Numbered from the stretch's first letter, positions 4,578-43,720 are shown. The stretch is DNA of 64,000 nucleotides from Thermoflexales bacterium (GCA_041738395.1 JBGSPW010000025.1:4100-68099), one strand, 5' to 3'. Notes: generated from the sequence alone by a model not told the origin. A program made the numbers and translations.

Positions 4578-4963
4578 CTTAGCCAGGTTTCAATCTCAGC
4601 CAGAATTTGGTTGAGGCTTGGCGGATCGGCGGGCGCGAGCCGGTCTGCGGGACCGAGGTGCTTGTGATGAAGATGCGTGACGATTTCAGGATGGTGCGGC
4701 GCATTGTCGTAGCGAAAGACGCGCTGCCCGTGGCGAAGATAGGTGTAGGCGTAACTCACACGGATAGGATAGCCTAATTCGGTACTCACGACTTCGTAGA
4801 GGTCGAGATACGAATCGTCCCAGAAAACGACGCGACAACGGATTAAGCCATTGTAGTCATCTGAGGCGAGACAGGTAAATGGCTCTTCGAGGCGACCGTT
4901 GGGAATACGCTTCGCGTGACGCAGGCCGCGCTCCAGGGTTTCAAAATAGGCGTCGACGTTCAT
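4568..4963 (-). CDS. DUF6516/TumE-like putative toxin (131 aa from internal Met)
   Basis: Motif YDNAPHHPEIVTHLHHKH as I recall for the DUF6516/TumE family. The start overlaps the stop of the upstream small gene (ATGA). Confidence 0.5.
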   Translation of the reverse strand: MNVDAYFETLERGLRHAKRIPNGRLEEPFTCLASDDYNGLIRCRVVFWDDSYLDLYEVVSTELGYPIRVSYAYTYLRHGQRVFRYDNAPHHPEIVTHLHHKHLGPADRLAPADPPSLNQILAEIETWLSQA

Positions 4964-5178
4964 ACCGAGGCAGACACGTTTTGCATGAACTGGCGAACCG
5001 GCAGTGAGGTGAGGTAGAGATGATACAAGCCGGCCCACAGCATCAGGTCGTCGTCATCGCCCAGTTCGCCGTCTTCGTAGCGGCGGTAGAATTCGATCGT
5101 GGAGTAGCCGTACTTGCGCTCGTATTCGCGCAAACGGTCCGACAGTTCGTCAAAGGTCAGGCGTTGTGATTTGACCAT
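4960..5178 (-). CDS. small partner protein of the DUF6516-like gene (putative antitoxin)
   Basis: 72-aa ORF with GGGAG-type SD, translationally coupled to 4568..4963. Shares the theme KYG(Y/M)..(E/Q)F..acidic run..W with 8451..8780. Confidence 0.45.
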   Translation of the reverse strand: MVKSQRLTFDELSDRLREYERKYGYSTIEFYRRYEDGELGDDDDLMLWAGLYHLYLTSLPVRQFMQNVSASV

Positions 5179-5254
5179 GGCTCTGCTCCCAATAGTCACT
5201 CGTTCTTAAGCAGATTATAGCACGGCCAGCGTCGTGTGCATGGAAGGGGAATCG

Positions 5255-8077: not shown

Positions 8078-8454
8078 CCGGCGAAGGTCGTCAAATAGTC
8101 GAGTACCAGCGGCAGATCGTGATCGGGATCGCCGTTGAGGGTGGAATCGCCGACAAGGCCGGTCGCCGCGTGAAAGTGATGAGGATGTGTTGTGAGGCCG
8201 GGGAAATGCTCTTTGTTGTCCCAGCGGAGTACGGGCTGATCGGCCTGAAACAACTGATAGGCGTAATCGACGTGGCGATCGTTATAATACAGGCGAACTT
8301 GCAGCACACCGCCGCGTGTCAGCTCGGCGCGGACCTTCAGTGCAAACTGTTGAGCGGAAAATTGCTGCGTTTCAAGGACATGCACGGCCTTGCATAATGG
8401 AGAGCCTTGCAGGGTGGTGATGACCAGATTGAGAACAGTAGCGGGCGTGGTCAT
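8074..8454 (-). CDS. DUF6516/TumE-like putative toxin, paralog of 4568..4963
   Basis: WDNKEHFPGLTTHPHHFH motif. 4-nt overlap with the upstream partner gene. Confidence 0.5.
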   Translation of the reverse strand: MTTPATVLNLVITTLQGSPLCKAVHVLETQQFSAQQFALKVRAELTRGGVLQVRLYYNDRHVDYAYQLFQADQPVLRWDNKEHFPGLTTHPHHFHAATGLVGDSTLNGDPDHDLPLVLDYLTTFAG

Positions 8455-8780
8455 GCGGCGACTTCGCCCTGCAGGCCGAGCCAGCTGGTCAGCATGTCAC
8501 GGGCGATGCGCCAGTCCTGGGCGTCTTCTTCTTCCAGCATGACGGCCTGATTGAGCGCGACATTCGGCGCAGCCGTCAGGGTGGCCGAGCGCGATTTGAG
8601 ATAGGCGTCGAACTGGTCGTAAGTCATGCCGTACTTGGTGCGCAGCCGGTCATCAACCGCGCGATAGCGCTCGATCTGGCGCAGCACGTAGTCTTGCGCC
8701 ATTTCCGCGACGGCTTTTTCGGTCGAGGGGAATAGCCCGCGCCGCACAAAGGGCTGGACGATATCGGTTACGGTGTGCAT
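8451..8780 (-). CDS. small partner protein (putative antitoxin), analog of 4960..5178
   Basis: 109-aa ORF coupled to 8074..8454. KYGMTYDQFDAY ... EEEDAQDW resembles the other partner protein. Confidence 0.45.
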   Translation of the reverse strand: MHTVTDIVQPFVRRGLFPSTEKAVAEMAQDYVLRQIERYRAVDDRLRTKYGMTYDQFDAYLKSRSATLTAAPNVALNQAVMLEEEDAQDWRIARDMLTSWLGLQGEVAA

Positions 8781-8875
8781 TTTGGCTCCCGTGATTGACG
8801 ATGTACGACTATCGTGATTATACCATTCGAGCAGACTGGCCTGATCATTTGATTATGGAGTTGTCGATTGACTAA

Positions 8876-8948
8876 CCATCGAACCACCTTCACGACCATT
8901 CGCACCGAGGGGGCGATATTGCCCGCCGATCTTCTTCAGCGCATCGCC
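8876..8948 (+). pseudogene. orphan copy of codons ~4-28 of the drmMI-like methyltransferase gene
   Basis: 73 nt match 19876..19948 with 4 mismatches, and the last ~45 nt are identical. Would encode HRTTFTTIRTEGAILPADLLQRIA, then diverges into stops. Confidence 0.85.
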
Positions 8949-8980
8949 TGCTACAGTGGTGTGAGCAGCATGCCGAGCGA

Positions 8981-9325
8981 GTGTATTGGGGAAACGGCGC
9001 TAAAGACGGGTCATTCAATGCCATGCTAGGCTGGGACAGTGAGCATGCCGTCAATGTCTTTGGCGTGTGGACCTACGGGACAGTTGAGGTCGGTTTTCAG
9101 TATGCCAAAGTGTACCCGCCTTTTGATCAGGAAGAGAAGCGGCGCGAGTGGCTGAAACGGCTGAAGGGTATAGACGACAAGGCACTTTCAGCAGATTCCC
9201 TCAATCGCCGTCCCAATTTTCCGTTAGCCGCCTTGGCTGATGAAAAGAAGTTCCAACAGTTTGTCGAAACAATGGAATGGGTGATCAAACAACTGCAAAC
9301 CGCGCGTGATGCGAATGCTGGATGA
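8981..9325 (+). CDS. hypothetical protein (GTG start; possibly a gene fragment)
   Basis: 114-aa ORF directly after the methyltransferase remnant. No motif recognised. Confidence 0.3.
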   Translation: MYWGNGAKDGSFNAMLGWDSEHAVNVFGVWTYGTVEVGFQYAKVYPPFDQEEKRREWLKRLKGIDDKALSADSLNRRPNFPLAALADEKKFQQFVETMEWVIKQLQTARDANAG

Positions 9326-9341
9326 ACTGAGGAGAACATTG

Positions 9342-12317
9342 ATGTCATCTCCGTCTTTTGACCAAGACAAAGAACTCGCCGAATTCTTCACCGACGTGGA
9401 GCACTTGCGCAACGCATTCAAGGATGCCGTCGCCGCACCGACGTTGGCGAAGCGGCTGTTTGTCATTCACGGCGTCGGGGGTGTAGGTAAGTCGTCGCTA
9501 CTGCGGATGTTTCGCCTGTACTGCAAGAGTGTGAATGTCCCCGTCGCGCTCGCCTCGGGCGATGAAGCCAAATCCGCCTTCGATATTCTGGCGCGCTGGA
9601 CAGCCGATCTGAAGGCAGACGGTGTAGCATGCCCATTATTCAGCAAGATGTACGACCATTATCGCGCTCTTCAAGCCAAGGTCGAGACTGAAGCGGGCAA
9701 GATTGCTGGGCAGGCAGTCAAAGGTGCGGCAAAGACCGTGATTGAGACAGCAGCAAGTACTGTTCCCGGCATTGGCCCATTGCTGGGAAAACTGGGCGGA
9801 ACAAGCGTCGAGGCACTGGCTGACATACTTTTGAGCCGCGGATTCAAGCGGCCAGATATCGACTTGCTTCTCGACCCGACCAAGAAGCTTACCGATGATT
9901 TCCTCGATGACATGAATAAAGCCGCAGACAAACAGCGTGTTGTGCTGATGCTTGATACATTTGAGCAAATGACCGCGCTTGAAGATTGGGCGCGTGATAT
10001 TGCGCAACGCTTGCCTTCCAATATGTTGTTCGTAATTGCAGGTCGCGCTTTGCCGAACTGGAGCCGAACATGGGATAGTTGGCAAAAGAACGCGTACGTT
10101 GAAGAACTGAAGCCGATGACCGAAGACGTGATGCGCGAGTTGATTCGGCGCTATTACGCGACGATGCGCGGCGGTGAACCGGACCCTATACAAGTTGAGG
10201 CGATTATCCATTTTGCACGCGGTTTACCGATGGTCGTGACAAGCGCGGTGCAGTTGTGGGTCAAGTATGGTGTTGAGGATTTTCAAGCGGTAAAGGTCGA
10301 AATTGTTGCCAATCTCGTGGACCGCTTGATGGAGGGTGTGCCAAGCACGTTGATACCTGCCCTCGAAGCAGCAGCGGTTGTGCGTTGGTTCGATCAACCA
10401 ATCTTGCGTGCGGTGATGCAGCAAGATGATTTGCGCGAAGCATACAATGAGTTGCGACGCTTCCCGTTTGTGCGCGTGCGCGTGGAAGGGCTGGCGCTGC
10501 ACGATGCCGTGCGTGAGATTATGGACGAGAACTTGCGCGTACAAGATTCCGAGCGTTATCGTGAACTGCATAAGCGCGCGGCGGTGTATTTTGAAAAACG
10601 GCTGGGGAACGCAGGGAGCGAAGAAACAAGCCGGCTAGAGATGGAACGTTTGTATCATCGGATCCATGCTGATGAAGTCACTGGCCTCACGTTGTTTCAG
10701 GAGATGGCGGAAAATCTGACGCGATATCGCCTTGTCAATCGCTTGCGGGCGGTAGTAGATGATGCATACACTTATACGCTGGAGTGCAACAAGAGTAAGC
10801 TGTGGCGAGACTACTATAACGCACGATCAGCAGAGCTTGAGCGACATCTCGAAAAAGCGGAGGCGATCTACGAATCTATCCTCAAGCCTGAACCTGGAGA
10901 AAAGCTTGAAGGCAGATTGGAAGGATACACACTATGCGATTTAGGTGGCTTGCTGACGAGGCCATCACGATTAAGTGGAGCGAGTGAACGAAAGAAAGCC
11001 CACGATGTGCTAGAGCGTGCCCAAAGATTAATTGCTCGTTCAGATCCTAAGTTACTCGTCGTGTTGGAAAACATGCAGGAGATCACCAAGATAGAAAGTA
11101 ATTGGCCACTGACAGATAAGCTGTTTGATGATCGCATTGAAATATGCCGGGAGAATCACCATGCATTTGAACTGATTTACGCGTTAATCGCTCGAATTTC
11201 TGTTTCCGAAAGGCGAGGCAATTGGAATGGCGTGCGTGAACAAGAATATGAAGCGAGTGTAGCACTTGAAGACATTGGGGCTCCGCTTTTCTTACAGTAT
11301 ACGCTCCTACACCGCAGTCTGTATTGGATGCGAACTGGCCGGTACCATGAAGCGGAAAACCGCAGACGTAAATGCCTTGAAATAGCAGGACAGTTGAATC
11401 TGGCGCGCGAGCCCGCTTTAAGCCTTAATTGGCTTGGTTATTTACAAGGAATCCAAGACAAACTTGAATCGGCAGCCACATTGCAGGAATGCAAAGAAAA
11501 GCTAGATGACGCACAAAGTGACTGGGTCACGACCGCATTTAACTGTAACAAAGGATATGTGAATCTGCGGCAAGGCCATTATTTCGATGCAGAGGAATCT
11601 TTGAGGCAAGGACTAGCAGGTAAGCAGAAGCTTGACCCAAAGGCGATCCCATTGATTCAGATATGGCTGGGAGAACTATGTGCATGCCAAGGGAAATGGA
11701 CAGAAGCTAACTCGCAGTATGAAGAAGCTCTCTGGCAGCGAATATCAGATAGCTATGATTTGCGCAGCACTGCCTTGACAGGTCTCATCTGCGTCAAGCA
11801 CGCACAAGGCGACTATACTGCTATCCCGCCACTACTCGCCGAAGCTGAGCAACTCGCCCAGCAGTACGAATATAACGATCATCTCGCCTCGTTGCGATTG
11901 ACGCAAGGGCATATCGCGTGGGAGGGCAATGCGCCGACGTGGGATAACGGTTTTGAGGCGACGCTGCACTTCTACCAACACTCGCTGATCTACGCTCTGC
12001 GCTACAACCGCTTTTTGCTGGACGAGGTGCTGTCAGGGCGACCGCAAGGATCACCCCTACGGCCGATTATTCCGCACTGTCTAGAACGCGGCGATGAGGG
12101 TCGGCAAATGCTGATCGCCTTGCGTGAATGGTGGCAGGCAGGCCTCAACGACATCGGCACACCGCGCCCGGATACGATTTCACCGATTCCTGAAGGCATT
12201 CCGTTGTTGGAAGCGGAACGTGTCGCGCGCGGCCGCGAGCCGGGTGATGGCTCGCCGCAAAAGAGTGTGATCGAGCAGATTGAGGCGGCGTTGGTGAAGT
12301 TAGGCGAGATTGCGTAA
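9342..12317 (+). CDS. P-loop STAND-like NTPase with C-terminal TPR array (paralog A1)
   Basis: Walker A VIHGVGGVGKSSLLRM, Walker B VVLMLDTFEQM, Gly-rich hydrophobic insert between them, long TPR-like helical C-terminus. GAGGAG SD precedes the ATG at 9342, and the N-terminus aligns with the paralog start MSS(P/S)SFDQDKELAEFF. Confidence 0.75.
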   Translation: MSSPSFDQDKELAEFFTDVEHLRNAFKDAVAAPTLAKRLFVIHGVGGVGKSSLLRMFRLYCKSVNVPVALASGDEAKSAFDILARWTADLKADGVACPLFSKMYDHYRALQAKVETEAGKIAGQAVKGAAKTVIETAASTVPGIGPLLGKLGGTSVEALADILLSRGFKRPDIDLLLDPTKKLTDDFLDDMNKAADKQRVVLMLDTFEQMTALEDWARDIAQRLPSNMLFVIAGRALPNWSRTWDSWQKNAYVEELKPMTEDVMRELIRRYYATMRGGEPDPIQVEAIIHFARGLPMVVTSAVQLWVKYGVEDFQAVKVEIVANLVDRLMEGVPSTLIPALEAAAVVRWFDQPILRAVMQQDDLREAYNELRRFPFVRVRVEGLALHDAVREIMDENLRVQDSERYRELHKRAAVYFEKRLGNAGSEETSRLEMERLYHRIHADEVTGLTLFQEMAENLTRYRLVNRLRAVVDDAYTYTLECNKSKLWRDYYNARSAELERHLEKAEAIYESILKPEPGEKLEGRLEGYTLCDLGGLLTRPSRLSGASERKKAHDVLERAQRLIARSDPKLLVVLENMQEITKIESNWPLTDKLFDDRIEICRENHHAFELIYALIARISVSERRGNWNGVREQEYEASVALEDIGAPLFLQYTLLHRSLYWMRTGRYHEAENRRRKCLEIAGQLNLAREPALSLNWLGYLQGIQDKLESAATLQECKEKLDDAQSDWVTTAFNCNKGYVNLRQGHYFDAEESLRQGLAGKQKLDPKAIPLIQIWLGELCACQGKWTEANSQYEEALWQRISDSYDLRSTALTGLICVKHAQGDYTAIPPLLAEAEQLAQQYEYNDHLASLRLTQGHIAWEGNAPTWDNGFEATLHFYQHSLIYALRYNRFLLDEVLSGRPQGSPLRPIIPHCLERGDEGRQMLIALREWWQAGLNDIGTPRPDTISPIPEGIPLLEAERVARGREPGDGSPQKSVIEQIEAALVKLGEIA

Positions 12318-12401
12318 CTTCAGTGTGATTCTGTATCCACTCACTACACGCTCTTCAACGCAATATACCGAACAAGCCGCTCAAAACTGAGGGAAACCTG
12401 A

Positions 12402-15400
12402 ATGTCATCTTCGTCCTTTGACCAAGACAAAGAACTGGCCGAATTCTTTACCGACGTTGAGCACTTGCGCGAAGCGTTCAAGAATGCCGTCGCCGCACCA
12501 ACGCTGACGAAGCGACTGTTTGTCATTCACGGTGTTGGCGGGGTGGGCAAGTCGTCGCTGTTGCGGATGTTTCGCCTGCACTGCAGGAGCGTGAATGTCC
12601 CCGTCGCGCTCGCCTCGGGCGATGAAGCGAAGTCTGCCTTCGACATTCTGGCGCGCTGGACGGCCGATTTGAAGGTGGACGGCGTGTCGTTTTCGGCGTT
12701 CAGCAAGACGTTCGCGCATTACCGCGAAATTCAAGCCAAAGTAGATGCACAGGCGAAGAAGGCGGGTGGACGCGCGGCGGATATTGGCGGCAAGGCCGCC
12801 TCGAAAACGGCGGAAGCGGCCGGCGGTGCACTGGCAGGAGCGGCCATCGGCTCGATGATTCCTGGCGTCGGTACAGCAATTGGTGGTGCCCTGGGCGGTG
12901 TGCTGGGTGGGATGGGTGCGGAGGCATTGACGGACTGGCTGCGCGGATTTCTCAAACAACCGGACATCGATTTGCTTCTTGACCCGGCGAAGAAACTCAC
13001 CGACGATTTCCTAAACGACATTACCAAAGTCGCGGATAAGCGGCGCAGCGTGCTGATGCTCGACACGTTTGAACAGATGACGGCGCTTGAAGATTGGACG
13101 CGTGACGTTGCACAACGCTTGCATCCCAATGTGTTGTTCGTGATTGCAGGACGTGCCCTGCCGAACTGGAGCCGGGCGTGGGATAGTTGGCAAAAGCGCG
13201 CGTACATTGAAGAACTCAAGCCGATGACCGAAGACGTGATGCGCGAGTTGATTCAACGCTACTACGCGACGATGCGCGGCGGTGAACCAGCCCCCGCACA
13301 GGTTGAGGCGATTATCCGTTTTGCCCGCGGCTTGCCGATGGTCGTGACGAGCGCGGTACAGTTGTGGGTCAAGTATGGGGTCGAAGATTTTCAATCGGTT
13401 AAAACCGAAATCGTCGCCAATCTGGTGGATCGCATGACGGAAGGCGTTCCAAGTGCGTTGCTTCCCGCGCTCGAAGCGGCAGCCATTGTGCGCTGGTTTG
13501 ATCAACCAATTTTGCGGGCGGTATTGCAGCAAGACGATGTGCGCGATGCGTATAACGAGTTGCGACGCTTCCCGTTTGTACGCGTGCGCGTGGAAGGGTT
13601 GGCGTTGCACGACGCCGTGCGTGAGATTATGGATGAGAACCTGTGCGCACAAGATTCCGAACGCCACCGAGAAATGCACGAGCGTGCCGCGACCTATTTT
13701 GAAAAGCGGCTGGAAAAGGCAACAGGCGAAGAGGCCGAGCGACTTGGATTGGAACGATTGTATCATCGCGTCCGCGCAGATGAAGTGACAGGTATCAAAT
13801 TGTTTCAGGAGACGGCAGAGGAATTGGTGCGATCTCGTCTGATCAGTCGATTGCGCGCGTTGTTGAATAATGTTCGAATCGATTTGCTTGAACAAGAAAA
13901 TAGTAAACTATGGGTTGAATACTACAGTGCTCGTTTGCTACACTTGGAAGCCCAACGCGCTGATGCAGAAAAAGCATACCAATCCATCTACGAAAATAAT
14001 AACGCTGAAACTCGCTTGCGTGCGTATGCACTCTGCGATTGGGGAAGCATTCTAGAGAGAACAGCTTGGTTATCGAAACCCGGCGGCACAGAGAAGGCAA
14101 CGAACGTCTTGGAAAGAGCATTGACCATCTTATCCAATGAGGATCCCAAGACGGTTTCAGCTCTTCTAAGTCTGTGTGGAGTATATACGAGACTAGGGGA
14201 CTACGAACACGCGATTTATTATGGCAAAAAGGCAATTGAGTTTTCAGAGATACGTCAAGATAGCTATGCGTTGATATTAGCCCTGGAATCACTGCGATGG
14301 ATATATGTACTTAGCGGGGACTGGCAAAGCATGTTAGCAAATCAAGCCGCTGGAGAAAAATTGCTCACCAGTCATGGAAAAAGTCCCTACCTACTTGCCA
14401 GAGTAATTGGATCCTTCACAATTGGCTGTTCATGGGCAGGAAACTACTCTGAAAGTGAACGGAGATCTATAATCGCTCTTGGGGCATTTGAGGAGCTAAG
14501 TGCTCCCGCTACACTTAGCTATCTAAGAGAGCTAGCATATGCAGAAGGAATGCAGGATAAGTATGAAAAGGCTGACGAAAATTTCGGCAAAGCTCTTCAG
14601 GTTGCCAATCTTCTTGGCTACCAAAGAGAAAAAGTAACCCTGAGTTTTTGGGGCAGAATCCTCATCAGACAAGGAGCAGTGGAAAAAGCCAGAAACTTGC
14701 TAATTGAGAGTTACAACTCGGGACAGGAGTTGAAAGACCCTGGCGTGATGATAGAATCTCTGAATTGGCTTGCAGAAGTAGCTGAGATCGCTCATGATTG
14801 GCTGGATGCAGAAACGCAATACAATCGGGCACTTGAATTGCGAAGGACTCGCCGCTACTACTTCGAATGCGGTGCCCTCACAGGCTTCGTTCGCGTCAAG
14901 CACGCGCAAGATGACTTTGCCGCTATCCCACCACTCCTCGCGGAAGCAGAGCAACTGGCCCAGCAGTATGAGTACAACGACCATCTCGCGTCATTGCGGC
15001 TCACACAAGGGCATATCGCTTGGGAAGGCAAGGCGCCGACCTGGGACAACGGCTTCGAGGCGGCGCTGCATCTCTATCAACACGCGCTGATCTATGCCCT
15101 GCGCTACAACCGCTTTTTGCTGGATGAGGTGCTGTCGGGGCGATCGCAAGGAACACCACTGCGACCGATTATTCCGCATTGTCTAAAACGCGGCGAAGAA
15201 GGACGACAAATGCTGATCGCGTTGCGCGATTGGTGGCAGGCAGGCGTCAACGACATCGGCACGCCGCGCCCGGACACGATTTCGCCGATTCCCGAAGGCA
15301 TTCCGTTGCTGGAGGCAGAACACATCGCACGCGAACGTGAGCCGGGAGATGGTTCGCCGCAAAAGAGTGTGATTGAGCAGATTGAAGTAGCGTTGGGTTA

Positions 15401-15413
15401 TTCGGTAATCTGA
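12402..15413 (+). CDS. P-loop STAND-like NTPase with C-terminal TPR array (paralog A2)
   Basis: Same Walker A/B as A1. Glycine-zipper-like insert GSMIPGVGTAIGGALGGVLGGMG. N-terminal ~470 aa and C-terminal ~190 aa are highly similar to A1, while the centre is divergent. Confidence 0.75.
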   Translation: MSSSSFDQDKELAEFFTDVEHLREAFKNAVAAPTLTKRLFVIHGVGGVGKSSLLRMFRLHCRSVNVPVALASGDEAKSAFDILARWTADLKVDGVSFSAFSKTFAHYREIQAKVDAQAKKAGGRAADIGGKAASKTAEAAGGALAGAAIGSMIPGVGTAIGGALGGVLGGMGAEALTDWLRGFLKQPDIDLLLDPAKKLTDDFLNDITKVADKRRSVLMLDTFEQMTALEDWTRDVAQRLHPNVLFVIAGRALPNWSRAWDSWQKRAYIEELKPMTEDVMRELIQRYYATMRGGEPAPAQVEAIIRFARGLPMVVTSAVQLWVKYGVEDFQSVKTEIVANLVDRMTEGVPSALLPALEAAAIVRWFDQPILRAVLQQDDVRDAYNELRRFPFVRVRVEGLALHDAVREIMDENLCAQDSERHREMHERAATYFEKRLEKATGEEAERLGLERLYHRVRADEVTGIKLFQETAEELVRSRLISRLRALLNNVRIDLLEQENSKLWVEYYSARLLHLEAQRADAEKAYQSIYENNNAETRLRAYALCDWGSILERTAWLSKPGGTEKATNVLERALTILSNEDPKTVSALLSLCGVYTRLGDYEHAIYYGKKAIEFSEIRQDSYALILALESLRWIYVLSGDWQSMLANQAAGEKLLTSHGKSPYLLARVIGSFTIGCSWAGNYSESERRSIIALGAFEELSAPATLSYLRELAYAEGMQDKYEKADENFGKALQVANLLGYQREKVTLSFWGRILIRQGAVEKARNLLIESYNSGQELKDPGVMIESLNWLAEVAEIAHDWLDAETQYNRALELRRTRRYYFECGALTGFVRVKHAQDDFAAIPPLLAEAEQLAQQYEYNDHLASLRLTQGHIAWEGKAPTWDNGFEAALHLYQHALIYALRYNRFLLDEVLSGRSQGTPLRPIIPHCLKRGEEGRQMLIALRDWWQAGVNDIGTPRPDTISPIPEGIPLLEAEHIAREREPGDGSPQKSVIEQIEVALGYSVI

Positions 15414-15471
15414 ACTGTGGTTGCCGTTCGATACGCGGACTTTTGCAAGTACCTTCCTACGAGACAGATAG

Positions 15472-18400
15472 ATGACTACTTTATTTGACGCCGTCATCCC
15501 AAACCTTGTTGCCGAAGCTCTGATCCGTGCGGGCGATCATCTGTTTGGTTCTGCTATTCGTAAAGCGCTTGGTCGCTCAGAAGAGATTCGCTTGAAAGCG
15601 AGCATTGGAAGAGCACTGCATGAACTTGCCTCGGATTATGCACAACTGGAGCGCGCCGAAGGCCCTGCCTATATTCTTGATTCAAGGTTCTTTGAGGACA
15701 AAGCTGCGCGCACTGAACTTCTCAAGGTCTACAGACCTGATTTTATTTCGCGAGATGTGCTCGTCGCTCGCTATATTGAATTATACGGCTATGAGGACTT
15801 GGATAAGTTTCAGCGCAATTTGTCAGATTTCCTCCGAAATCTACATGAGATCAATTGGGAATTGTTGCCTCCGGGTGATCAATTTCAAACATCTTTCTTG
15901 ACGCGAGAAATACGTCAGCTGAGCGAACGAGTCGATAGCCTAATCTCAAATAATCAGACTGCCCAGCCTGCTTCTCCAACCCCATCCGCTGAGACCGCAA
16001 AGCCATCCGACATTTACACATTCTCCCGAAAAAGGGAAGTGCCAGATGCCATACAAGACGCTTTGACCACACTCACGTTGGCGGTACAAGAATCTTGGGC
16101 ACAGCCTGTTCCCCTTTATCGCGAGCTCGTTGAAGAAGAAACACAGCGCGAAATTGAAAAAGCGCGGAGTTTCCTGAAGCAGGGTGATATCAAAAGAGGA
16201 CATAGAATACTCTCTCATATCGAACAATCGAGGTCTAAGGTTCTTGATGATCTGCCTGCTGCAATTCGTTTCGATCTATTCCGACTTCTCGGCGCAGTGT
16301 ATCTGGTGCAGGGCGACATAGAGACGGCTGAATCCTATTTAAGGCGATCTGAAGTGGTATCGCCTGATGATTCGCGCTTAAACACTAACTGGGCCCAATT
16401 GCATCTCTTGAAACGTGAGTTTTTAGAGGCTGAGCGACTTGGTATAGAGGCTGAGCGAAGTGGCACTAATCGAGCTCAATCTATCGAAGTTGTGATTCAG
16501 GCAATGCTAGCCCAAAAGAAAGCGGAGGCTGCTCTAGCGTGGCTGGGGGACATAGATGTTGCCGAAGATCTTGAACATATCTATGTGTGTTGGGGACAAG
16601 TCTATTTTGCACTCGGTGATTTAGATGGAGCGCAGGAATATTTAGATAAGTCACTTGAACTGAAGCGCAATTATGCACCTGCGGATGCATTTATGGGCGA
16701 CGTTAAACTCGCCAAGTTGTACGAGCGTATCCGCAATTTCGCAGTACTCGAACAGGCTGACGATCTTCTTGACCAGGAATTACTGCAATCAATTGTGGCG
16801 CACTACACCAGCGCAATTAAGTCTTATGAGCATGCAGGGCTACTCGTACAAACAGAGGTAATTCACGTCAATCTTGCAAATGCGTTAAATCTCTTACGCA
16901 GGCCTAAAGAAGCCCTCGTACACATCAAAAAAGGACTTCGAAATTCCCCTCCCGTGCCTGAACCATGGCTGATAGCAGCAAGAGTCGCTCGCGATAGCGG
17001 TCAGATTGAATTGGCGGAGCACTGGTGTACTGAAGCCGCAAAACGCGCGCCAGATATCCCAGAGCCTTACTTTCAGCTTGCCGAAATTCGCTTAAGCCAG
17101 TCCAATACACAAGGCGCGCTAAGTGCTCTCAATCAAGCAGAAGCGATGTGCAAATCAGATCGTCATAAGACTGAGTTGGCGCTATTTCGTGCTGATGTAT
17201 ATAGCCAATGTGGAGACAGTGCGGGAATCCGCCAGGCCCTCGACTCAGTTCCTGAGGCGGCCCGTGATTCCTCTGATGTGATGTTAGCAGAGGCCGGGTG
17301 GTCCCGTCGCGCAGGCGATACTGATGGAGCTCAAACCATTCTTCTTAAGGCTGCGGAGAAATTTCCTGAGAATGTGAGTGTAGCAGCGTCAGCTGGGCGC
17401 TTTTTGTTATACGACAAGCAAAATCCAAAGGACGCAGTTCCCTTCCTACAGAAATGGGTAAAGTCTGCCCCTAGTAAAGTTAGCTATTTCCATCTAGCCC
17501 AATCTTTCTTTGGTTTAGGACATTATCAAGAAGCGCTGCGAGTCATTAATGAAGCTCGCTTGGCAAAGTGTGCAGATGATTACTTGCGGCGAATTGAAGG
17601 CGGCGCACTGTTAGGGCGGAAACGTTATCGTGAAGCTGTTCAAGTACTTGAGACAGTACCAATTGATAAAAGAGACTTTTCAAGCTGGTGCAATCTTGGG
17701 GCGGCCTGGCGATTGTTAGGTGATCGCGATCGAGCAATCGACGCGTATGAGAATGCATCTCGTATCAATGAAAAGCAACCGGAACTGTTTTTGACTTTGG
17801 CGGAGTTGTACCTACAACTTGAAGACAATGAGAATGCATATCACTATGCCCAAGCGGCATTGAAACTGGGGGAAGACGATCCTGACATTCACATGGGTTT
17901 CTTCCATACTGTTTTTGCCGCACAGCGCGAACGTGAGGCACTCCAAGTTCTGATGGAAATACCGAAACGATTTCCAGAATACACGGGACTGTATGCAGCG
18001 GGGTTAGACGAAGTCCGCCGCGTCTTTTCCGAAGGACAAATTCGCTCTCAACAGGCACTCAGCGAATATTTGGCAGGCCGTCTGCCGTTTACGATACTCT
18101 CGCTTTTGCTGAACTTGGCTACTGTTGAGCTATGGTTCGGATTTAGGCACGATGGGTTGAAGCAGCTATACGCTTCCGGCACACTTGAAGAACAGAGATC
18201 CGAAAGGAGTTTACTATCCAGTAGTGAGGTCGTCGTTGATTACACTGCATTATTGACGTCGCACGCACTAAACCTGCTTGAAGTATTACCATCGATCTTT
18301 GACAAGATATATATCCCTTCCACTGTGAGTTGGGCGATCATGTCAGATCGGGCACGGCTAATCCACACCCAACGTGAGCGCCTGAAAAGGCTGAAGGAAT

Positions 18401-19863
18401 TAAAGGAGTTCATTGGGAAATATCCACGCGTGACAATTCACTCTGATTGGGTAACCCCACCCGAACAATTCTTCGCAAATGATGGCGATCGCGCTGAAGC
18501 ACTCGACATGCAAGATATGATCTTGGTGAAGGAGTTCAATGCTGTATACGTGTGCGACAACGAGGCGAACTTCGCAGCGTTTGCCCGCTTAGTAGAGAGC
18601 CCAAGCGTTGGCAGTTGGGATATTTTGGAAGTACTAATTCGTGACGAGCTGCTAACTGTCGAGGAACAAGCCAAGGCCGCGCGTTATATGGCAGAGAATC
18701 GCTTAGTGCGGATTTCCCCTGAATATTTCCTCTCTCATGAGGATGAACTGGTACTGAGCTGGCATAGTCTGACCTCCTTATTCGAATGCGAGCCAAGTTT
18801 GCTGCGTGTGATTGCTGCACATTTTCGCCGAGTACACATCAGTCCAAGCACATGGGCCTTATTAGACAAAGACGCATTGCGCAGCGAAGTCATTGAACTG
18901 GCCATACCGGCACTAACTGAAATTGAAAACGCCCTGAAAACTAACGAGAAGTATGAAATTGTCTCTTCCGAAGAATTTGCCGAGAGGAACCTTGATTCCG
19001 AAGCGCAATTCAATCTCGCAAATCAAGTTCTCGACGCTATTGGCGTAGCTAAAGAGAAAGGCGTACCGCTTTGGACAGACGACTTGGTAGCTCGACGATT
19101 GGCTGCTAACGACAGTGCGGGACCAGCAACTATCTGTTCACGCGCAGTCCTCGACAAGACCCAGATTGAGCAAATATTAACGCCGCAGGCTTACTGTGAA
19201 AAAGTCTTTTTCTTGCTTTCAAATCAATACGAGTTTACTAGTATCAACTCTCTATTAGTGTATTGGCTGCTCGAACAGCATGGATTTCAAGACAATTCGG
19301 AAATCCAGCTCGTCTTGACAAAGTTAAACGAAACGGCAAAGCAAATCGTAGCTAATACATCAGCGGGTGATAGTCTCAAAGAATTTGGGCTCCATTTGAA
19401 CGAAGGCCTACATTCTTATTGGTCGGTTTTATCTACGGCGATTGCTTTGCTCTGGCTGATACCCACAGAAGTAAAGCCCAACATACGCAATCAATGGGCT
19501 AAAATCCTACTAGAGCAAAGTATGGAAGTGCAAAGTATTTTCCCATCAATGGATATCGTGATGATGCTAATCATTACTTCATATATGGACATTGTCTCGC
19601 GTCACAATCTTGATGCAGCACGTAAATATTACTCATTTGCTTGGACCTATTGCTGGCTTCGTGGTCTAGAGGAAGAATTCTATGACGGCCTGCTTACGAT
19701 GGTCCGTGCGTTTGAACAAGTAGATGTACCTGATGATTATCGAAGATCGTTTATTGCAGAGTTGCTACATTCGGTGAAAGGAAGGATTGCACCTGCGAAG
19801 ATCGCGCGATATATTATCCAGACCCACCCAGACTGGCTAACTACATCACCCAAAGATTCCTAA
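15472..19863 (+). CDS. 1463-aa TPR-repeat protein with unknown N-terminal domain and possible PIN-like C-terminal region
   Basis: Multiple TPR-like repeats (LGAVYLVQGDIETAESYLRRS etc.). C-terminal half has VVVDYTALL, YVCDNEA and PLWTDDLVARRLA, reminiscent of PIN acidic motifs. The stop TAA lies 1 nt before the drmMI ATG. Confidence 0.6.
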   Translation: MTTLFDAVIPNLVAEALIRAGDHLFGSAIRKALGRSEEIRLKASIGRALHELASDYAQLERAEGPAYILDSRFFEDKAARTELLKVYRPDFISRDVLVARYIELYGYEDLDKFQRNLSDFLRNLHEINWELLPPGDQFQTSFLTREIRQLSERVDSLISNNQTAQPASPTPSAETAKPSDIYTFSRKREVPDAIQDALTTLTLAVQESWAQPVPLYRELVEEETQREIEKARSFLKQGDIKRGHRILSHIEQSRSKVLDDLPAAIRFDLFRLLGAVYLVQGDIETAESYLRRSEVVSPDDSRLNTNWAQLHLLKREFLEAERLGIEAERSGTNRAQSIEVVIQAMLAQKKAEAALAWLGDIDVAEDLEHIYVCWGQVYFALGDLDGAQEYLDKSLELKRNYAPADAFMGDVKLAKLYERIRNFAVLEQADDLLDQELLQSIVAHYTSAIKSYEHAGLLVQTEVIHVNLANALNLLRRPKEALVHIKKGLRNSPPVPEPWLIAARVARDSGQIELAEHWCTEAAKRAPDIPEPYFQLAEIRLSQSNTQGALSALNQAEAMCKSDRHKTELALFRADVYSQCGDSAGIRQALDSVPEAARDSSDVMLAEAGWSRRAGDTDGAQTILLKAAEKFPENVSVAASAGRFLLYDKQNPKDAVPFLQKWVKSAPSKVSYFHLAQSFFGLGHYQEALRVINEARLAKCADDYLRRIEGGALLGRKRYREAVQVLETVPIDKRDFSSWCNLGAAWRLLGDRDRAIDAYENASRINEKQPELFLTLAELYLQLEDNENAYHYAQAALKLGEDDPDIHMGFFHTVFAAQREREALQVLMEIPKRFPEYTGLYAAGLDEVRRVFSEGQIRSQQALSEYLAGRLPFTILSLLLNLATVELWFGFRHDGLKQLYASGTLEEQRSERSLLSSSEVVVDYTALLTSHALNLLEVLPSIFDKIYIPSTVSWAIMSDRARLIHTQRERLKRLKELKEFIGKYPRVTIHSDWVTPPEQFFANDGDRAEALDMQDMILVKEFNAVYVCDNEANFAAFARLVESPSVGSWDILEVLIRDELLTVEEQAKAARYMAENRLVRISPEYFLSHEDELVLSWHSLTSLFECEPSLLRVIAAHFRRVHISPSTWALLDKDALRSEVIELAIPALTEIENALKTNEKYEIVSSEEFAERNLDSEAQFNLANQVLDAIGVAKEKGVPLWTDDLVARRLAANDSAGPATICSRAVLDKTQIEQILTPQAYCEKVFFLLSNQYEFTSINSLLVYWLLEQHGFQDNSEIQLVLTKLNETAKQIVANTSAGDSLKEFGLHLNEGLHSYWSVLSTAIALLWLIPTEVKPNIRNQWAKILLEQSMEVQSIFPSMDIVMMLIITSYMDIVSRHNLDAARKYYSFAWTYCWLRGLEEEFYDGLLTMVRAFEQVDVPDDYRRSFIAELLHSVKGRIAPAKIARYIIQTHPDWLTTSPKDS

Positions 19864-19864
19864 T

Positions 19865-22800
19865 ATGCCCACCCACCATCGATCCACCTTCACCACCATC
19901 CGTACCGAGGGGGCGATATTGCCCGCCGATCTTCTTCAGCGCATCGCCGAGGGGGATGCGACGCTGGGCGGGTTAACGCCGGAGGCGTATCACCTGGCGG
20001 CGGGCGAGAAGATTAACGAAGCTATCAACCGCGCGTGGAATCGTTGTCTGGGCGCGTGGGCGACGTTCCAATCGGCGGCGGCAAAGTTGCCGGAGAATGA
20101 TCTGGGTACGTCGATCACGCGCGAGCGCTGGCTGCTGCCACTGTTTCAGGAGTTGGGTTATGGCCGCCTCGTGCCTGCCAAGGCGATCGAGATTGCTGAA
20201 GGGGCGGGGTCACCCCGCCCGTACCCGATTTCGCACGGCTGGCAGAACACGCCGATCCATCTGGTGGGGCTGCAGGTCGATCTGGATCGGCGGACGCCGG
20301 GCGTGGCCGGGGCGTCGCGCAGCAGTCCGCATAGTCTGGTGCAGGAACTGCTGAATCGATCGAGCGAGCACCAATGGGGGATCGTGTCGAACGGGCTGCG
20401 GCTGCGCGTGCTGCGCGATAACGCGCGGTTGACGCGGCAGGCTTACGTGGAGTTCGATCTGCAGGCGATGATGGACGGGGAGGTGTACGCGGATTTCGCG
20501 CTGTTGTGGTTGGTGGGGCATCAATCGAGAGTGGAAGTTGGCCCCCCCTCTGTCCCCCCCGTCTTCGACAGGGGGGAGGAACGAGGACGCATCGACAGGC
20601 GAGAAGAATGCTGGCTTGAAAAGTGGATGAAGGCGGCGCAGGATCAGGGGACGCGGGCGCTCGATCAACTGCGCGGCGGTGTGGAGGCGGCGATTACGGC
20701 GCTGGGGACAGGCTTTATCGCGCCGACGAGCAATCGGGCGTTGAGGGAGAAGTTGCAATCGGGGTCATTGAGCGCGCAGGAGTTTTATCGGCAGTTGCAG
20801 CGCATGGTGTATCGATTGATCTTTTTGTTCACGGCCGAGGAGCGTGGCTTGCTGCTCGATCCCAAGGCCGCTGCGAGCGCGCAGGATCGCTATACGCGGT
20901 ATTACTCGATCGGGCGGCTGCGACGCCTGGCGGAACGCCGCAGCGGGACGCGACATGTCGATCTGTATCACGGCCTGCGGCTGGTGATGGATCATCTGGG
21001 CGGCGATGGGTGTCCTGAATTGGCGCTGCCGGCGCTGGGCAGTGATTTGTTCAACAACGAGTTCATCCGCGATCTGGAGGGTTGCGAGATCGCCAATCGG
21101 GCGGTGTTGGACGCGATCCGCGCGCTGGCTTTTATCCAGAGCAAGGGCGTGCGGCGGTTGATCGATTACAAGAACCTCGGCTCGCAGGAATGGGGCAGCG
21201 TGTATACGTCGCTGCTGGAACTGCATCCGATGTTGAATTTGGGCGCGGGCACGTTCGAGTTGCAGTCGGCGGCGGGCAATGAACGCAAGACGACGGGCTC
21301 GTATTACACCGAACCGGGGCTGGTGAATGAATTGGTCGAGAGCGCGCTGGAGCCGGTGATCGCCGATCGGTTGAGCCGCGCCCGTACGCGCGAAGAAAAA
21401 GAACGCGCGCTGTTGTCGATCAGGGTGCTCGATTCCGCGAGCGGCAGCGGTCACATGCTGCTGGCGGCCGGGCATCGACTGGCGCGCCATCTGGCGATCA
21501 TCCGATCGGGCGACGAGGAACCGTCGCCGGAAGCAATGCGTAAAGCGCTGCGGGATGTGATCGGCCACTGCCTGTACGGCGTGGACAGCAATCCGATGGC
21601 GGTGGAGTTGTGCAAGGTGAACCTGTGGATGGAGGCGCTGGAGCCGGGCAAGCCGCTGTCGTTTCTCGATCATCACATCAAGTGCGGCAACAGTTTGATC
21701 GGCGCGACGCCGGCGCTGCTGGCCGGGGGCATCCCCGATGAGGCCTTCACGCCGATCGCGGGCGACGACAAGGCGGTGTGCAGCGCGTTCAAGAAGAAGA
21801 ACAAGCAGGAACGCTCGGGCCAGCGCAGTCTGTTCGACGCGGCGCTGCAACCGTGGGAGCGCGTGGGCGACATCGCGGCGAGCCTGCTGCAGGTGGACGA
21901 ACTGGCCGACGATACGATCGAGGGCGTGCGCCGTAAGCAGGCGCGGTATGCGGAGGTGGTGCGATCGAGCGGCTACGAATACGGCCGCCTGTGGGCCGAT
22001 AGTTGGTGCGCGGCTTTTGTGTGGAAGAAGACGAAAGAGTTTCCATACCCGATTACGGAGGAGGTGTTCCGCCGCATCGAGCACAACCCGTTCGACCTCG
22101 CGCCGTGGATGCGGGAAGAGATCGAGCGACTGGCGGGGCAGTATCAGTTCTTTCATTGGCATTTGGAGTTTCCAGAAATATTTGGCCCCCTTCCCGGCCT
22201 TTCCCCGTCGGAAAAAGCGCCGACAGGGGAAGGAGCAGGCGGGTTTGATGTGTTGTTGAGCAATCCGCCGTGGGAAAAAATCAAACTTCAAGAAGAAGAG
22301 TTCTTCGCGGCGCGTGATCCGCGGATTGCGACTGCACCGAATACGGCCGCACGCCAGAGACTGATCGCTGTGTTATCAAAGACAAATCCTGCACTAGCGC
22401 TTGAACTATCCGAAGCGAAACGTGCTACCGAAGGCGTAAGCAAGTTCGTTCGATTAAGCGAGCGCTACCCATTGACAGGCATTGGCGATGTAAATACATA
22501 TGCGCTGTTTGCAGAGCTTGATCGCAGTTTGATTGCATCGAATGGCCGCACTGGCATCATCTTGCCAACAGGCATTGTCACGGATGACACTACCAAAGAT
22601 TTCTTTGGTGACGTGATGGCGAATCAAGCCTTGGTAAAGTTGATTGGCTTTGAAAACGAGTCATTCATCTTTCCAAATGTTCATCATTCATTTAAGTTCT
22701 GTGCTGTCACAATAACCGGTCAACAATCAAGGCTCGAACGTGCAGACTTCGTTTTCTTTTGCCGTCACTTCGAGAATGTCAAACAAGCGGAGCGACATTT

Positions 22801-23899: not shown

Positions 23900-23961
23900 T
23901 ATAGTGGCACTTACGTTTGAGCGCACTTTTCACTGCGGGGAGAACAATTAGGAGCATTAAC

Positions 23962-25584: not shown

Positions 25585-25736
25585 ACGTGCTCGATCCGCA
25601 GGAGGTGTATGGCTCGGACTTTCCGGGGGAGACGTTCCGCGTGCTGACGAAGTCCCCATCTTTTGGGGGAAGGAGAAGGAGTTGAAGGCGTACGGGGAGT
25701 TTCGGACGAGGAGATTGGTGTTGGAGAAGTGGGATG
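25585..25736 (+). pseudogene. orphan copy 2 of the drmMI 3' end, interrupted by a 22-nt hairpin insert
   Basis: Matches 23686..23810 (VLDPQEVYGSDFPGETFRVL / KE(M/L)KAYGEFRTRRLVLEKWD) with extra cgaagtccccatcttttggggg at 25648..25669. Confidence 0.85.
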
Positions 25737-27932: not shown

Positions 27933-28123
27933 GCGGGATGAACGCGGTACGTGCTCGATCCGCAGGAAGTGTATGGCTCGGATTTTCCGGGGGAGACGTT
28001 CCGCGTGCTGACGAAGTCCCCGTCTTTCGCCCAGCGCGTCCCCGGCACATAGTGCTCCCTTCGGCAGGGTGTGGGGGAATGGAGAAGGAGTTGAAGGCGT
28101 ACGGGGAGTTTGGGGCGCGGTAG
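27933..28123 (+). pseudogene. orphan copy 3 of the drmMI 3' end, interrupted by a 66-nt insert
   Basis: gcgggatgaacgcggtacgtgctcgatccgcagga... matches 23665.. onward. Insert at 28012..28077. Homology is lost after ggggagttt (about 28110). Confidence 0.85.
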
Positions 28124-43664: not shown

Positions 43665-43671
43665 AGAGTCC

Positions 43672-43720
43672 TCCAGAAAGCCGGCCCGCTGAGTGAATCT
43701 CAACTGGCCGGCGCATCGTG
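43672..43720 (-). repeat. 48-nt stem-loop repeat, copy 1, immediately upstream of the MoxR RBS
   Basis: Near identical to 44055..44102. Stem GCCGGCC/GGCCGGC followed by TTTCT. Confidence 0.7.

Follow-up and report, generated by a model that had tools for sequence, protein, structure and literature searches.

ARMADA, the DISARM-related Antiviral Defense Array, has a type I that is defined by a YprA-like helicase, an SNF2 helicase, and a PglX-like methylase, with the YprA protein stated to be closest to DruE (bioRxiv 10.1101/2025.09.15.676423), and a type II that has been validated in E. coli (PMC13463889). Kaur, Iyer, Burroughs & Aravind 2021 defined the TPR-GreA/B-C-PIN (TGP) defence family, whose PIN domain is catalogued as PF20698 and whose genes are reported to be mostly stand-alone, with a predicted mechanism given in the same work (PMC8195603). 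TGP proteins are described as reading hijacked RNA polymerase via their GreA/B-C domain, and validation exists for one member, Agp, which belongs to the abortive-infection system Bab/Agp (bioRxiv 10.1101/2024.11.07.622273).

The present study compared with these systems a locus within the window, by which we mean the whole 64,000-nt stretch of DNA that was analysed. Two STAND NTPase genes, A (9342-12317, + strand, 991 aa) and B (12402-15413, + strand, 1003 aa), and a long gene, here called gene C (15472-19863, + strand, 1463 aa), precede the gene for a PglX/DrmMI-like, ArmB-like N6-adenine methyltransferase (19865-23899, + strand), and the successive gaps measure exactly 84, 58, and 1 nt. A sequence-only reading had proposed A, B, and gene C as a defence module coupled to the methylase. 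It survives in part: all coordinates and domain calls were confirmed, the three genes are of defence type, share one direction, and are probably co-transcribed, gene C carries nuclease domains, and its coupling to the methylase holds, but neither a conserved trio nor an undescribed gene C was borne out. A, B, and gene C are genuine genes, but together they do not amount to a self-contained new system, and nothing here is a categorically new kind of system. We favour, with moderate confidence, a composite locus consisting of an ARMADA type I variant, a fast-evolving TPR-double-PIN fourth gene, and add-on STAND sensors.

The backbone begins with a YprA-like, ArmC-like DExH helicase (9-4577, + strand) whose N-terminus is cut off by the window edge; a full-length homologue in the related locus L007 has 1729 aa. 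Pfam assigns it DEAD, Helicase_C, and MZB (MZB/DUF1998), followed by a C-terminal DUF559 (Vsr-like) region that scores 20.4 bits, just under the cut-off of 20.6, and matches NCBIfam vsr at E = 0.0078. In related loci, the first gene is 74-95% identical to this one, whose best PADLOC match is DruE (1e-66), with DrmA at 1e-9. The SNF2 helicase that follows (5234-8077, + strand; Pfam SNF2-rel_dom and Helicase_C; DrmD/BrxHII/ArmA-like) is 85-96% identical in related loci and matches the PADLOC models DrmD at 2.6e-82, BrxHI/BrxHII at 1.8e-62, and one DpdE model at 5.9e-271; its score against NCBIfam DISARM_DrmD is 315 bits, with a cut-off of 610. For the methylase (Pfam Eco57I and N6_Mtase), the PADLOC match to DrmMI (7.5e-62, 207 bits) is stronger than those to PglX.

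Judged from sequence, ARMADA type I is a better description of these flanking genes than classical DISARM, because the gene order of a YprA-like helicase (DUF1998, with a borderline Vsr-like C-terminus), a BrxHII-like SNF2 helicase, and a PglX-like methylase matches the published definition (bioRxiv 10.1101/2025.09.15.676423) and because the YprA homologue is closest to DruE. The module had been described as nested in DISARM, and a helicase/methylase operon is indeed present that resembles DISARM class 1 (Ofir et al. 2018) in having a DrmD-like SNF2 helicase, a large DrmMI-like N6-adenine methylase, and a DUF1998-associated helicase. Here, however, one YprA-type protein combines the helicase with DUF1998, whereas DISARM splits DrmA and DrmB, the SNF2 helicase stays under the NCBIfam DrmD cut-off, and neither DrmB nor the PLD nuclease (DrmC) was matched among the eight ORF products scanned (positions 9-27922). 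The classical DISARM label was set aside on these grounds, together with a DrmA match of only 1e-9, and ARMADA type I was preferred. Nor was a Dpd label adopted: one DpdE model reaches 900 bits on the SNF2 helicase, yet no Dpd modification component was found among the scanned ORF products, and the YprA homologue gives only weak DpdJ/DpdF-type helicase matches. The very strong PADLOC match to DpdE counts against our composite ARMADA type I explanation. The locus also departs from ARMADA type I in that a TPR-double-PIN gene is inserted immediately ahead of the methylase and that TA modules and STAND genes occupy a cargo slot on the stretch from the SNF2 gene to the methylase, neither of which is mentioned in the main text of the ARMADA paper (bioRxiv 10.1101/2025.09.15.676423), and an ArmD-type UvrD/RelE gene is absent here.

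Gene C scores 44 bits for PF20698, above the Pfam threshold of 27.8, and the same domain is present in 39 of its 44 nearest relatives. The sequence-only reading had taken gene C for an undescribed giant protein with PIN-like motifs in a combination without a name; the nuclease domains are there, but they belong to a family that Pfam already recognises and assigns to TGP. Gene C opens with an N-terminal domain (15472-16041, + strand, aa 1-190) that is conserved within its clade and forms a separate 178-aa ORF in locus L005; as had been noted, it is of no recognised type, the first ~200 aa returning neither a Pfam match at E <= 10 nor a PADLOC match. In TGP proteins this end can hold an effector or effector-associated domain such as EAD10, TIR, or SIR2, and a relative, P0145, carries SIR2_2. 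A TPR array follows (16159-18006, + strand, aa ~230-845), matched by >15 TPR Pfam families over aa ~235-842, and then an HTH-like linker, PF24407, which is matched weakly at the position expected for TGP.

Beyond the linker lie PIN-like domain 1 (18220-18726, + strand, aa ~917-1085; PF20698 profile positions 1-66, E = 4e-4), in which D923, D959, D1015, and D1029 are invariant in the clade and which forms an alpha/beta unit in the AF2 model, and PIN-like domain 2 (18739-19281, + strand, aa ~1090-1270; PF20698 profile positions 15-137, E = 6.6e-9), in which WTDD at 1201-1204 is invariant and D1203 and D1204 are kept in at least 90% of the 44 relatives. The protein ends in an all-helical domain (19294-19860, + strand, aa ~1275-1463; AF2 helices 427-602 of the modelled fragment) that has no Pfam match. 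Gene C appears to carry two tandem PIN-like domains, since there are two separate PF20698 matches with matching AF2 secondary-structure patterns; an HHalign comparison of the two domains using 5-sequence profiles gave a probability of 0.3%. Foldseek found nothing significant in the PDB for the 614-aa gene C model (best E 0.03, glutamate racemases), probably because this C-terminal query has several domains, and a word-indexed search with the same half returned one protein.

The domain that gives TGP proteins the middle of their name was sought in gene C by several routes. Pfam gave no PF01272 match, and the AF2 model of aa 850-1463 holds no beta-rich domain. In canonical TGP proteins, ~100 aa separate the Gre domain (753-826 in P0147, 785-854 in P0154) from the linker that follows it; in gene C, TPRs fill the equivalent position, leaving no room between the TPRs and the linker. 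For four of the five clade members, an HMM made from 11 canonical Gre segments returned no match at E <= 10, and for the fifth (P0128) it gave a chance-level E = 1.4. We conclude that gene C lost, or never had, the GreA/B-C domain.

On its sequence, gene C is a GreA/B-C-less relative of TGP proteins and a variant of a known TPR-PIN defence family. It shares with TGP a long TPR array followed by the family-specific PIN (PF20698), a variable N-terminal module, and fast evolution, but it differs in the missing GreA/B-C signal, in its tandem PIN-like domains and extra helical C-terminal domain, in an N-terminal 190 aa that match no known effector or EAD, and in standing in an operon with a methylase rather than alone. 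It differs likewise from Bab/Agp, an amyloid-signalling pair in which a small Bell-domain gene beside the TGP gene has an amyloid motif in common with the TGP N-terminus, as no Bell/Bab-like gene adjoins it, the 58-nt and 1-nt gaps being too small for an ORF, and as its N-terminus is a conserved domain of ~190 aa and not a short motif.

A gene C homologue stands directly upstream of the methylase in all five independent lineages (the window, L001, L004, L007, and L005/L012), with SNF2 and YprA genes upstream wherever the contig extends. At the nucleotide level, five of six loci and four of five lineages retain the junction '...AAAGATTCC TAA N ATG'. The coupling of gene C to the methylase, which had been suggested from the single nucleotide between the stop codon and the ATG, is real and conserved. 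The clade is tiny, its five independent lineages all coming from Anaerolineae metagenome contigs, and the conserved adjacency could partly reflect shared descent of one island; one of these lineages (L005 and L012) is decayed, with gene C split and the methylase shortened to ~500 aa.

Between the SNF2 gene and gene C lies what is, on balance, probably a variable cargo slot, holding a toxin-antitoxin pair, a gene remnant, and the two STAND genes. The pair (8074-8780, - strand) comprises a TumE-like toxin (8074-8454; Pfam TumE E = 1e-12) and an upstream partner ORF (8451-8780) that is 81% identical to an ORF of L001, and it is cargo in this slot; another TumE-family toxin gene (4568-5038, - strand; Pfam TumE E = 1.4e-18) sits between the two helicase genes, and L004 has the same gene at this position. 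An orphan 74-nt copy of methylase codons 4-28 (8875-8948, + strand), 95% identical to 19875-19948 and with sharp boundaries, is one arm of a direct repeat bracketing an 11-kb block that contains A, B, and gene C. It adjoins the remaining 3' third (8939-9325, + strand) of a gene that L001 and L015 retain intact (387/392 aa); by tblastn the remnant is 76% identical to the C-terminus of L001 7890-9053 and 45% identical to L015 8766-9944, and blastn takes the match out to 8939. The stretch 8875-9325 is a rearrangement scar. Further downstream, the methylase 3'-end segment (23682-23810, + strand) has decayed copies at 25585-25736 and 27949-28120.

Both STAND proteins carry AAA_16 in Pfam, with TPR_MalT in A and TPR_12 in B, and both have Walker A GVGGVGKS at aa 44-51, preceded by ~43 aa. 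For A, a GTG at 9306 is an alternative start, but the A/B repeat begins 17 nt before each of the two start codons, which supports the ATG at 9342. Residues that are invariant in the family include G44/G46/G47/G49/K50/S51 and D221/E224. AF2 models B (pLDDT 82.3) as an NTPase joined to a helical/winged-helix part and a TPR solenoid that is helical throughout, and the best PDB fold match by Foldseek is the STAND-TPR protein 6mfv; the model holds no enzymatic effector domain, and with the Pfam results this bears out the earlier observation that the STANDs have no recognisable fused enzymatic effector. B has a glycine-zipper-like insert between Walker A and Walker B (12762-12941, + strand, aa 121-180) that is conserved in the family and degenerate, though Gly-rich, in A. 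Residues 139-169 of the B insert match Pfam Gly-zipper_Omp (0.0023) and PADLOC LeoB (5e-5), and the insert has an AF2 pLDDT <50 and a peak hydropathy of 1.44.

A and B are 61% identical overall. Their chassis is conserved (~85% nt identity), whereas their central TPR segments are unrelated (16-34% aa identity). The hypervariable segments (A: 10782-11771, + strand, aa ~481-810, GC 0.47; B: 13872-14867, + strand, aa ~491-822, GC 0.45) are sharply set off from their surroundings, with that of A only 12-34% identical in amino acids to the copies in B, L007, and L015 against 76-94% for the flanks, and mean pairwise identity over 66 family members is 28.7% in the central segment versus 73% in the flanks. 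The two genes had been called paralogues, suggesting a duplication. A recent tandem duplication was rejected, as their conserved parts are no closer to each other than to other metagenome copies and their central parts are unrelated, and the chassis tree also rules it out by placing them in two different lineages, A with P0026 and P0042 and B in a clade with the L007 and L015 copies. With Avs/AVAST STANDs and the MalT-clade STAND-TPR fold (6mfv), A and B share a P-loop STAND NTPase, helical/winged-helix modules, and a TPR sensor, and the hypervariability of that sensor is as expected for an immune receptor of the Avs/NLR-like kind. They differ from Avs/AVAST in lacking a fused N- or C-terminal enzymatic effector and in having the conserved glycine-zipper-like insert and a conserved ~180-aa C-terminal cap after the variable segment, and no PADLOC Avs model matched either protein.

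Our composite reading builds on the gene content, synteny, domain calls, and divergence pattern observed above, and from here on each functional step is one that we infer. By analogy with the tested ARMADA II, the backbone would mark self DNA by methylation, and unmodified invading DNA would be attacked directly. In a small Anaerolineae lineage, this ARMADA type I backbone may have gained gene C as a fourth, operon-integrated gene supplying a TPR-guided PIN nuclease arm, in a role that might be comparable to that of the RelE-RNase-bearing ArmD of ARMADA II, and the fast divergence of gene C may reflect direct contact with phage factors. The STANDs would be autonomous NLR-like sensors of different specificities, in a family that apparently combines a conserved chassis with a central TPR segment that is hypervariable and swappable, and their output may come from the conserved glycine-zipper insert or else from a partner in trans.

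Two linked possibilities go further, and we hold them only tentatively, as rather doubtful: that gene C is an obligatory fourth subunit of ARMADA type I, and that the STANDs are a new class of Chloroflexota receptor. Under the first, methylation-based DNA restriction would be coupled to a TPR-guided double-PIN nuclease in a previously undescribed ARMADA type I subtype, with synthesis of gene C tied to that of the methylase via termination-reinitiation. Under the second, abundant receptors of ~1000 aa would exchange their specificity segment by recombination between the NTPase chassis and the C-terminal cap, and the effector would be an internal glycine-zipper hairpin entering the membrane upon oligomerisation.

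Plain clustering in a defence island, in which ARMADA-like genes, an autonomous TGP-like gene C, and two autonomous STANDs share the locus with no functional link, we judge unlikely. It would suit the mostly stand-alone habit of TGP genes (PMC8195603), as well as the stand-alone setting of a relative, P0135, and the mixed defence island around P0129, and cargo has turned over frequently at this locus, as its rearrangement scars and repeated methylase-end fragments show, with a low-GC mosaic marking the inserted parts. Against such clustering, every member of the gene C clade that was found stands directly upstream of the methylase, and the TAA-N-ATG junction has persisted at the nucleotide level despite a gene C that is only 40-45% identical between loci, where neighbouring genes are 74-96% identical. 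Moreover, a scan of the gaps between A, B, gene C, and the methylase found no promoter-like or terminator-like site, the promoter and terminator scans showing no enrichment over shuffled sequence.

A split system nested in the methylation system is the other improbable account: a STAND sensor would bind a phage protein and oligomerise, and gene C, as a separate PIN effector, would then have its nuclease switched on. The absence of an enzymatic effector domain from the STANDs is in keeping with this, as is the placement of a STAND next to gene C on the same strand, 58-70 nt away, in the window, L007, and L005, with the L015 STAND in the same slot at a contig end. The STANDs closest to B (L007 and L015) share its slot and form one clade with it on a conserved chassis, a placement that would allow a functional tie to gene C, and a more distant TPR-PIN relative, P0133, adjoins a trypsin-STAND-WD40 gene. 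However, L001 and L004 have gene C, SNF2, and methylase genes and no STAND at all; content is a single STAND in L007 and L015, a truncated fragment in L005, and a doubled set in the window. The STAND family has >443 clusters, against about five gene C lineages, all four of the more distant STAND homologues examined lie outside such operons in unrelated contexts, and A and B fall in separate chassis lineages. The trio that the sequence-only reading had treated as a unit is not conserved as one, gene C occurring without STANDs and STANDs without gene C; the STAND genes are optional in gene C operons, and A and B are separable sensors from a large Chloroflexota family. A homotypic adaptor (EAD/Death-like) common to gene C and the STAND termini was rejected on current evidence, as HHalign gave a probability <2% for all pairs of the gene C N- and C-domains with the STAND N-terminus, insert, NTPase, and C-cap.

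On the composite reading, a Gre-less double-PIN gene C in an ARMADA-type operon would demonstrate that RNA-polymerase sensing is dispensable for the TPR-PIN module to work and that methylation-based systems can take this module up as an accessory nuclease. Its parallel with the RNase-bearing ArmD of ARMADA II would offer a concrete handle on how helicase/methylase systems, which are poorly understood, execute defence. The STAND family, for its part, would represent a bacterial NLR-like receptor whose hypervariable sensor has sharp boundaries and resembles a cassette, and may serve as a model for the diversification of specificity.

Gene A and gene B, which encode the two STAND NTPase-TPR proteins (991 and 1003 aa), gene C, which encodes a 1463-aa TPR-PIN protein, and the methylase gene behind them are four co-directional long ORFs in the six-frame ORF list of the window, all on the + strand (A, 9342-12317; B, 12402-15413; gene C, 15472-19863; methylase, 19865-23899); the list bore out the gaps of 84 nt (A/B), 58 nt (B/gene C), and 1 nt (gene C/methylase) given in an earlier sequence-only reading. 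The first possible start of A is a GTG at 9306; a DNA repeat shared by A and B begins 17 nt before both ATGs (9325, 12385) and includes a GAGG motif, which supports 9342 as the start. No terminator-like site was found in any of the gaps among the four genes and promoter-like sites were not enriched relative to shuffled sequence, so the layout is compatible with, though no proof of, co-transcription.

The flanking backbone comprises a fused helicase-DUF1998 protein (YprA-like) with a putative DUF559/Vsr-like tail, whose top PADLOC matches are to DruE and not DrmA, a SNF2 helicase matching the DrmD, BrxHII, and DpdE models, and an Eco57I/N6_Mtase methylase with DrmMI matches. The backbone had been read as DISARM, an assignment we abandoned given this fusion, the failure to find either a separate DrmB gene or a PLD gene among the eight ORF products scanned from 9 to 27922, and a gene order of ARMADA type I, namely a YprA homologue, a BrxHII-like helicase, and a PglX-like methylase (bioRxiv 10.1101/2025.09.15.676423). 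According to the same work, the YprA homologues of ARMADA and Druantia are alike. ARMADA II, whose fourth component ArmD has a RelE-like RNase domain, is experimentally validated and works without growth arrest. With the type I gene order and a DruE-like YprA homologue, the backbone is best placed, on architecture and order, as a probable member of this recently described class; neither TPR-PIN nor STAND inserts appear in the main text of the ARMADA paper. The N-terminal ~780 aa of the methylase (GC 0.63) are highly conserved among the window, L007 (17457-22064), and L001 (14610-20012), and its C-terminal half (GC 0.50) varies in sequence and length (proteins of 1344, 1535, and 1800 aa in the window, L007, and L001), consistent with a swapped target-recognition part.

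The combination of A, B, and gene C had not been recognised as a named system. With 44 bits, gene C clears the Pfam cut-off of 27.8 for PF20698 ("PIN domain associated with the TPR-GreAB-C-PIN system"), which confirms the PIN-like acidic motifs noticed in its C-terminal half and puts it in the known TPR-GreA/B-C-PIN (TGP) defence family. TGP proteins consist of a variable N-terminal effector/EAD, TPRs, a GreA/B-C domain, and a PIN domain, and are predicted to dock on hijacked RNA polymerase and cut transcripts, with the effector as a back-up that they trigger (Kaur et al. 2021, PMC8195603); one member, Agp, together with the amyloid-controlled Bab, provides abortive infection against T5 (Ibarlosa et al., bioRxiv 10.1101/2024.11.07.622273). 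At E <= 1e-3, an exhaustive HMMER run with aa 850-1463 as query recovered no more than 164 cluster representatives; among the best 44 of these, PF20698 was present in 39 and GreA_GreB was detectable in six. Canonical members run Gre (e.g., P0147, 753-826), HTH-like linker PF24407, and PIN, whereas gene C has many TPR Pfam families over aa ~235-842, a linker-like stretch from ~848 with a weak PF24407 match, two PIN-like domains, and no GreA/B-C domain. A custom HMM made from 11 canonical Gre segments had no significant match either within the gene C clade or among the closest relatives of that clade (top match P0128, E = 1.4, at chance level), and the AlphaFold2 (AF2) model of aa 850-1463 (pLDDT 89.7, pTM 0.86) contains no beta-rich domain, showing instead two successive alpha/beta units that are alike in their order of strands and helices and, behind them, an all-helical domain. 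The first unit aligns to PF20698 positions 1-66 (aa 921-969, E = 4e-4) and the second to positions 15-137 (aa 1110-1212, E = 6.6e-9). D923, D959, D1015, D1029, D1203, and D1204 are invariant within the gene C clade, the last two being kept in at least 90% of the 44 relatives. Foldseek against the PDB with this whole multi-domain model returned nothing significant. The end domains set gene C further apart from TGP: neither the C-terminal helical domain nor the N-terminal ~190 aa, already described as an N-domain (~170 aa) of unknown type, has a Pfam match. Gene C is a new variant of the TGP family.

Walker A reads GVGGVGKS (aa 44-51) and Walker B reads LDTFE in both A and B, and the residues of both motifs do not vary across an alignment of 66 family members. 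In Pfam the two proteins match AAA_16 plus TPR_MalT or TPR_12; neither PADLOC nor NCBIfam gave a named family. In the AF2 model of B (pLDDT 82.3; closest PDB fold the STAND-TPR protein 6mfv), the NTPase is followed by a helical/winged-helix part and then by TPRs that form one unbroken solenoid to the C-terminus, with no extra enzymatic domain. The description of both proteins as effector-less therefore stands, with the caveat of a Gly-rich, glycine-zipper-like insert between Walker A and Walker B (B aa ~121-180, ...AAGGALAGAAIGSMIPGVGTAIGGALGGVLGGMGA...), which is kept across the 66-member alignment and degenerate in A. In B it matches Gly-zipper_Omp (E = 0.0023) and a segment of PADLOC LeoB (E = 5e-5), has AF2 confidence below 50, and peaks in hydropathy at 1.44; that it enters membranes is speculation.

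Identity between A and B is 61% overall but changes abruptly along the proteins, being 76-92% (~76-89% in nucleotides) over the N-terminal ~450 aa and the C-terminal ~180 aa vs 16-34% (31-51% in nucleotides, near random) over the central ~330 aa. All pairs that can be formed from A, B, the L007 copy, and the L015 copy show this pattern, and for the 66 members pairwise identity averages 73% in the flanks vs 28.7% in the central part; GC is also lower in the variable segments (0.45-0.47 vs 0.54-0.59). In a tree built from the conserved flanks only, B clusters with the L007 and L015 copies and A with P0026 and P0042, so that of the earlier "two paralogous" NTPases the shared family and the tandem placement survive and a recent duplication is ruled out: they are two different family members. 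They belong to an unnamed family with an ordinary STAND-TPR fold and an unusually clean, cassette-like variable segment. The family comprises more than 443 clusters (55-68% identity). Of the four more distant members whose contexts were inspected, two have housekeeping genes around them (L008, L018), one adjoins a mobile-element-like block (L010), and one a BsoBI-type R-M pair (L017). A third STAND gene of the window (25823-27922, 699 aa, NB-ARC/nSTAND1 plus TPR) has a G/N/D-rich N-terminal ~70 aa ("NVSGGVNIEANRDVNTGGDAVGRDKI") that recalls bacterial amyloid-signalling (BASS) motifs; no obvious partner Bell-domain ORF was found near it.

The gene C clade is rare. Beyond the copy in the window, the protein search gave three homologues and a fragment; no more copies were found in 185,579 species genomes, and JGI metagenomes gave the same contigs only. 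Counting L005 and L012 (94% identical) as one, there are five independent lineages (window, L001, L004, L007, and L005/L012), whose gene orders we took from a tblastn synteny table and called genes. L004 reads YprA-like helicase, TumE TA, SNF2, gene C, methylase; L001 reads YprA, SNF2, a 387-aa gene, small genes, gene C, methylase; L007 reads YprA, SNF2, one STAND, gene C, methylase; and L005/L012 is decayed, with a STAND C-terminal fragment, a split gene C, and a methylase shortened to ~500 aa. L015 reads YprA, SNF2, a 392-aa gene, and a STAND up to the contig end. The three genes had been proposed as a single module with the STANDs as sensors and gene C as the separate effector, which we consider unlikely. 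In its favour, a STAND gene neighbours gene C in three to four loci and the B-type STANDs group as a clade; against it, some gene C lineages have STAND genes and others do not, STANDs likewise occur without gene C, and no adaptor domain common to the two was found. Pure clustering of gene C and the methylase, with no functional link, is disfavoured by the conserved junction, as the methylase lies directly 3' of gene C in 5/5 lineages and "AAAGATTCC TAA N ATG CCCACC" is kept at the nucleotide level in five of six loci. Gene C itself is only 40-45% identical across loci vs 74-96% for its neighbours. Distant TPR-double-PIN relatives occur in three kinds of context: P0133 adjoins a trypsin-STAND-WD40 gene, P0135 is stand-alone, and P0129, in a mixed defence island (L020), is followed after 48 nt by a DUF1156 methylase, which makes it a second instance of a TPR-PIN gene directly ahead of a defence methylase; the island also holds SNF2-NOV_C helicase, WD40, TPR-CHAT, ATPase_2/DUF234, AAA_16, and DUF499 proteins.

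An orphan 74-nt copy (95%) of methylase codons 4-28 at 8875-8948 abuts the 3' third (8939-9325) of a gene that is intact in L001 (7890-9053) and L015 (8766-9944) and whose 387/392-aa product gives a weak NucS_C / PD-(D/E)XK hint (E = 0.0035). This copy and the methylase 5' end itself form a direct repeat that encloses the 11-kb A-B-gene C block, and 8875-9325 reads as the scar of a deletion or recombination between two ARMADA-like arrangements. A methylase 3'-end piece (~130 nt, 23682-23810) recurs twice downstream in decayed form (25585-25736 and 27949-28120; 96% alike, 81-89% against the live gene, with small insertions), and these copies bracket each of the third STAND gene and a PQQ/BamB-like beta-propeller gene (23917-25518, between methylase and third STAND, signal-peptide-like N-terminus), suggesting that sequence has repeatedly been inserted or replaced at this end of the methylase gene. 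The PQQ/BamB-like gene has low GC (0.49) and is odd cargo for a defence locus. Similar extra methylase-end copies (21529-21585, 21948-22015) lie around small cargo genes in L001. The GC mosaic (gene C 0.46-0.49, STAND middles 0.45-0.47, methylase C-terminal half 0.50, backbone ~0.60) fits repeated exchange of "sensor" parts. TumE-family toxin modules lie between YprA and SNF2 (4568-5038 (-), conserved in L004) and after SNF2 (8074-8780 (-)). Further downstream, the region with genes at 28832-33769 (-), 42444-43703 (-), 44739-45722 (-), and 59355-61391 (-) has the look of a mobile element or an extensive defence island. It holds a helicase and DUF6094 methyltransferase, like the block beside the L010 STAND homologue, along with a DUF6744 protein, a ParB-like protein, and a bpMoxR ATPase of the kind found in MoxR-vWA-beta-propeller ternary systems. 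The 64,000-nt window has no tRNA genes.

The best-supported reading of the locus is a composite of an ARMADA-I-type backbone; gene C as a lineage-specific, operon-integrated, fast-evolving, Gre-less TPR-double-PIN component; and a cargo slot between the SNF2 gene and gene C, here occupied by a TA pair, a gene remnant, and two STAND sensors that differ in specificity. In such a composite, self DNA would be marked by methylation, unmodified DNA would undergo helicase-nuclease attack, the PIN nuclease arm may play a role comparable to that of the ArmD RNase, and binding of a phage protein would lead the STANDs to oligomerise. For specialists, the link between TGP and ARMADA and the mosaic of the STAND family are worth following up, if not startling.
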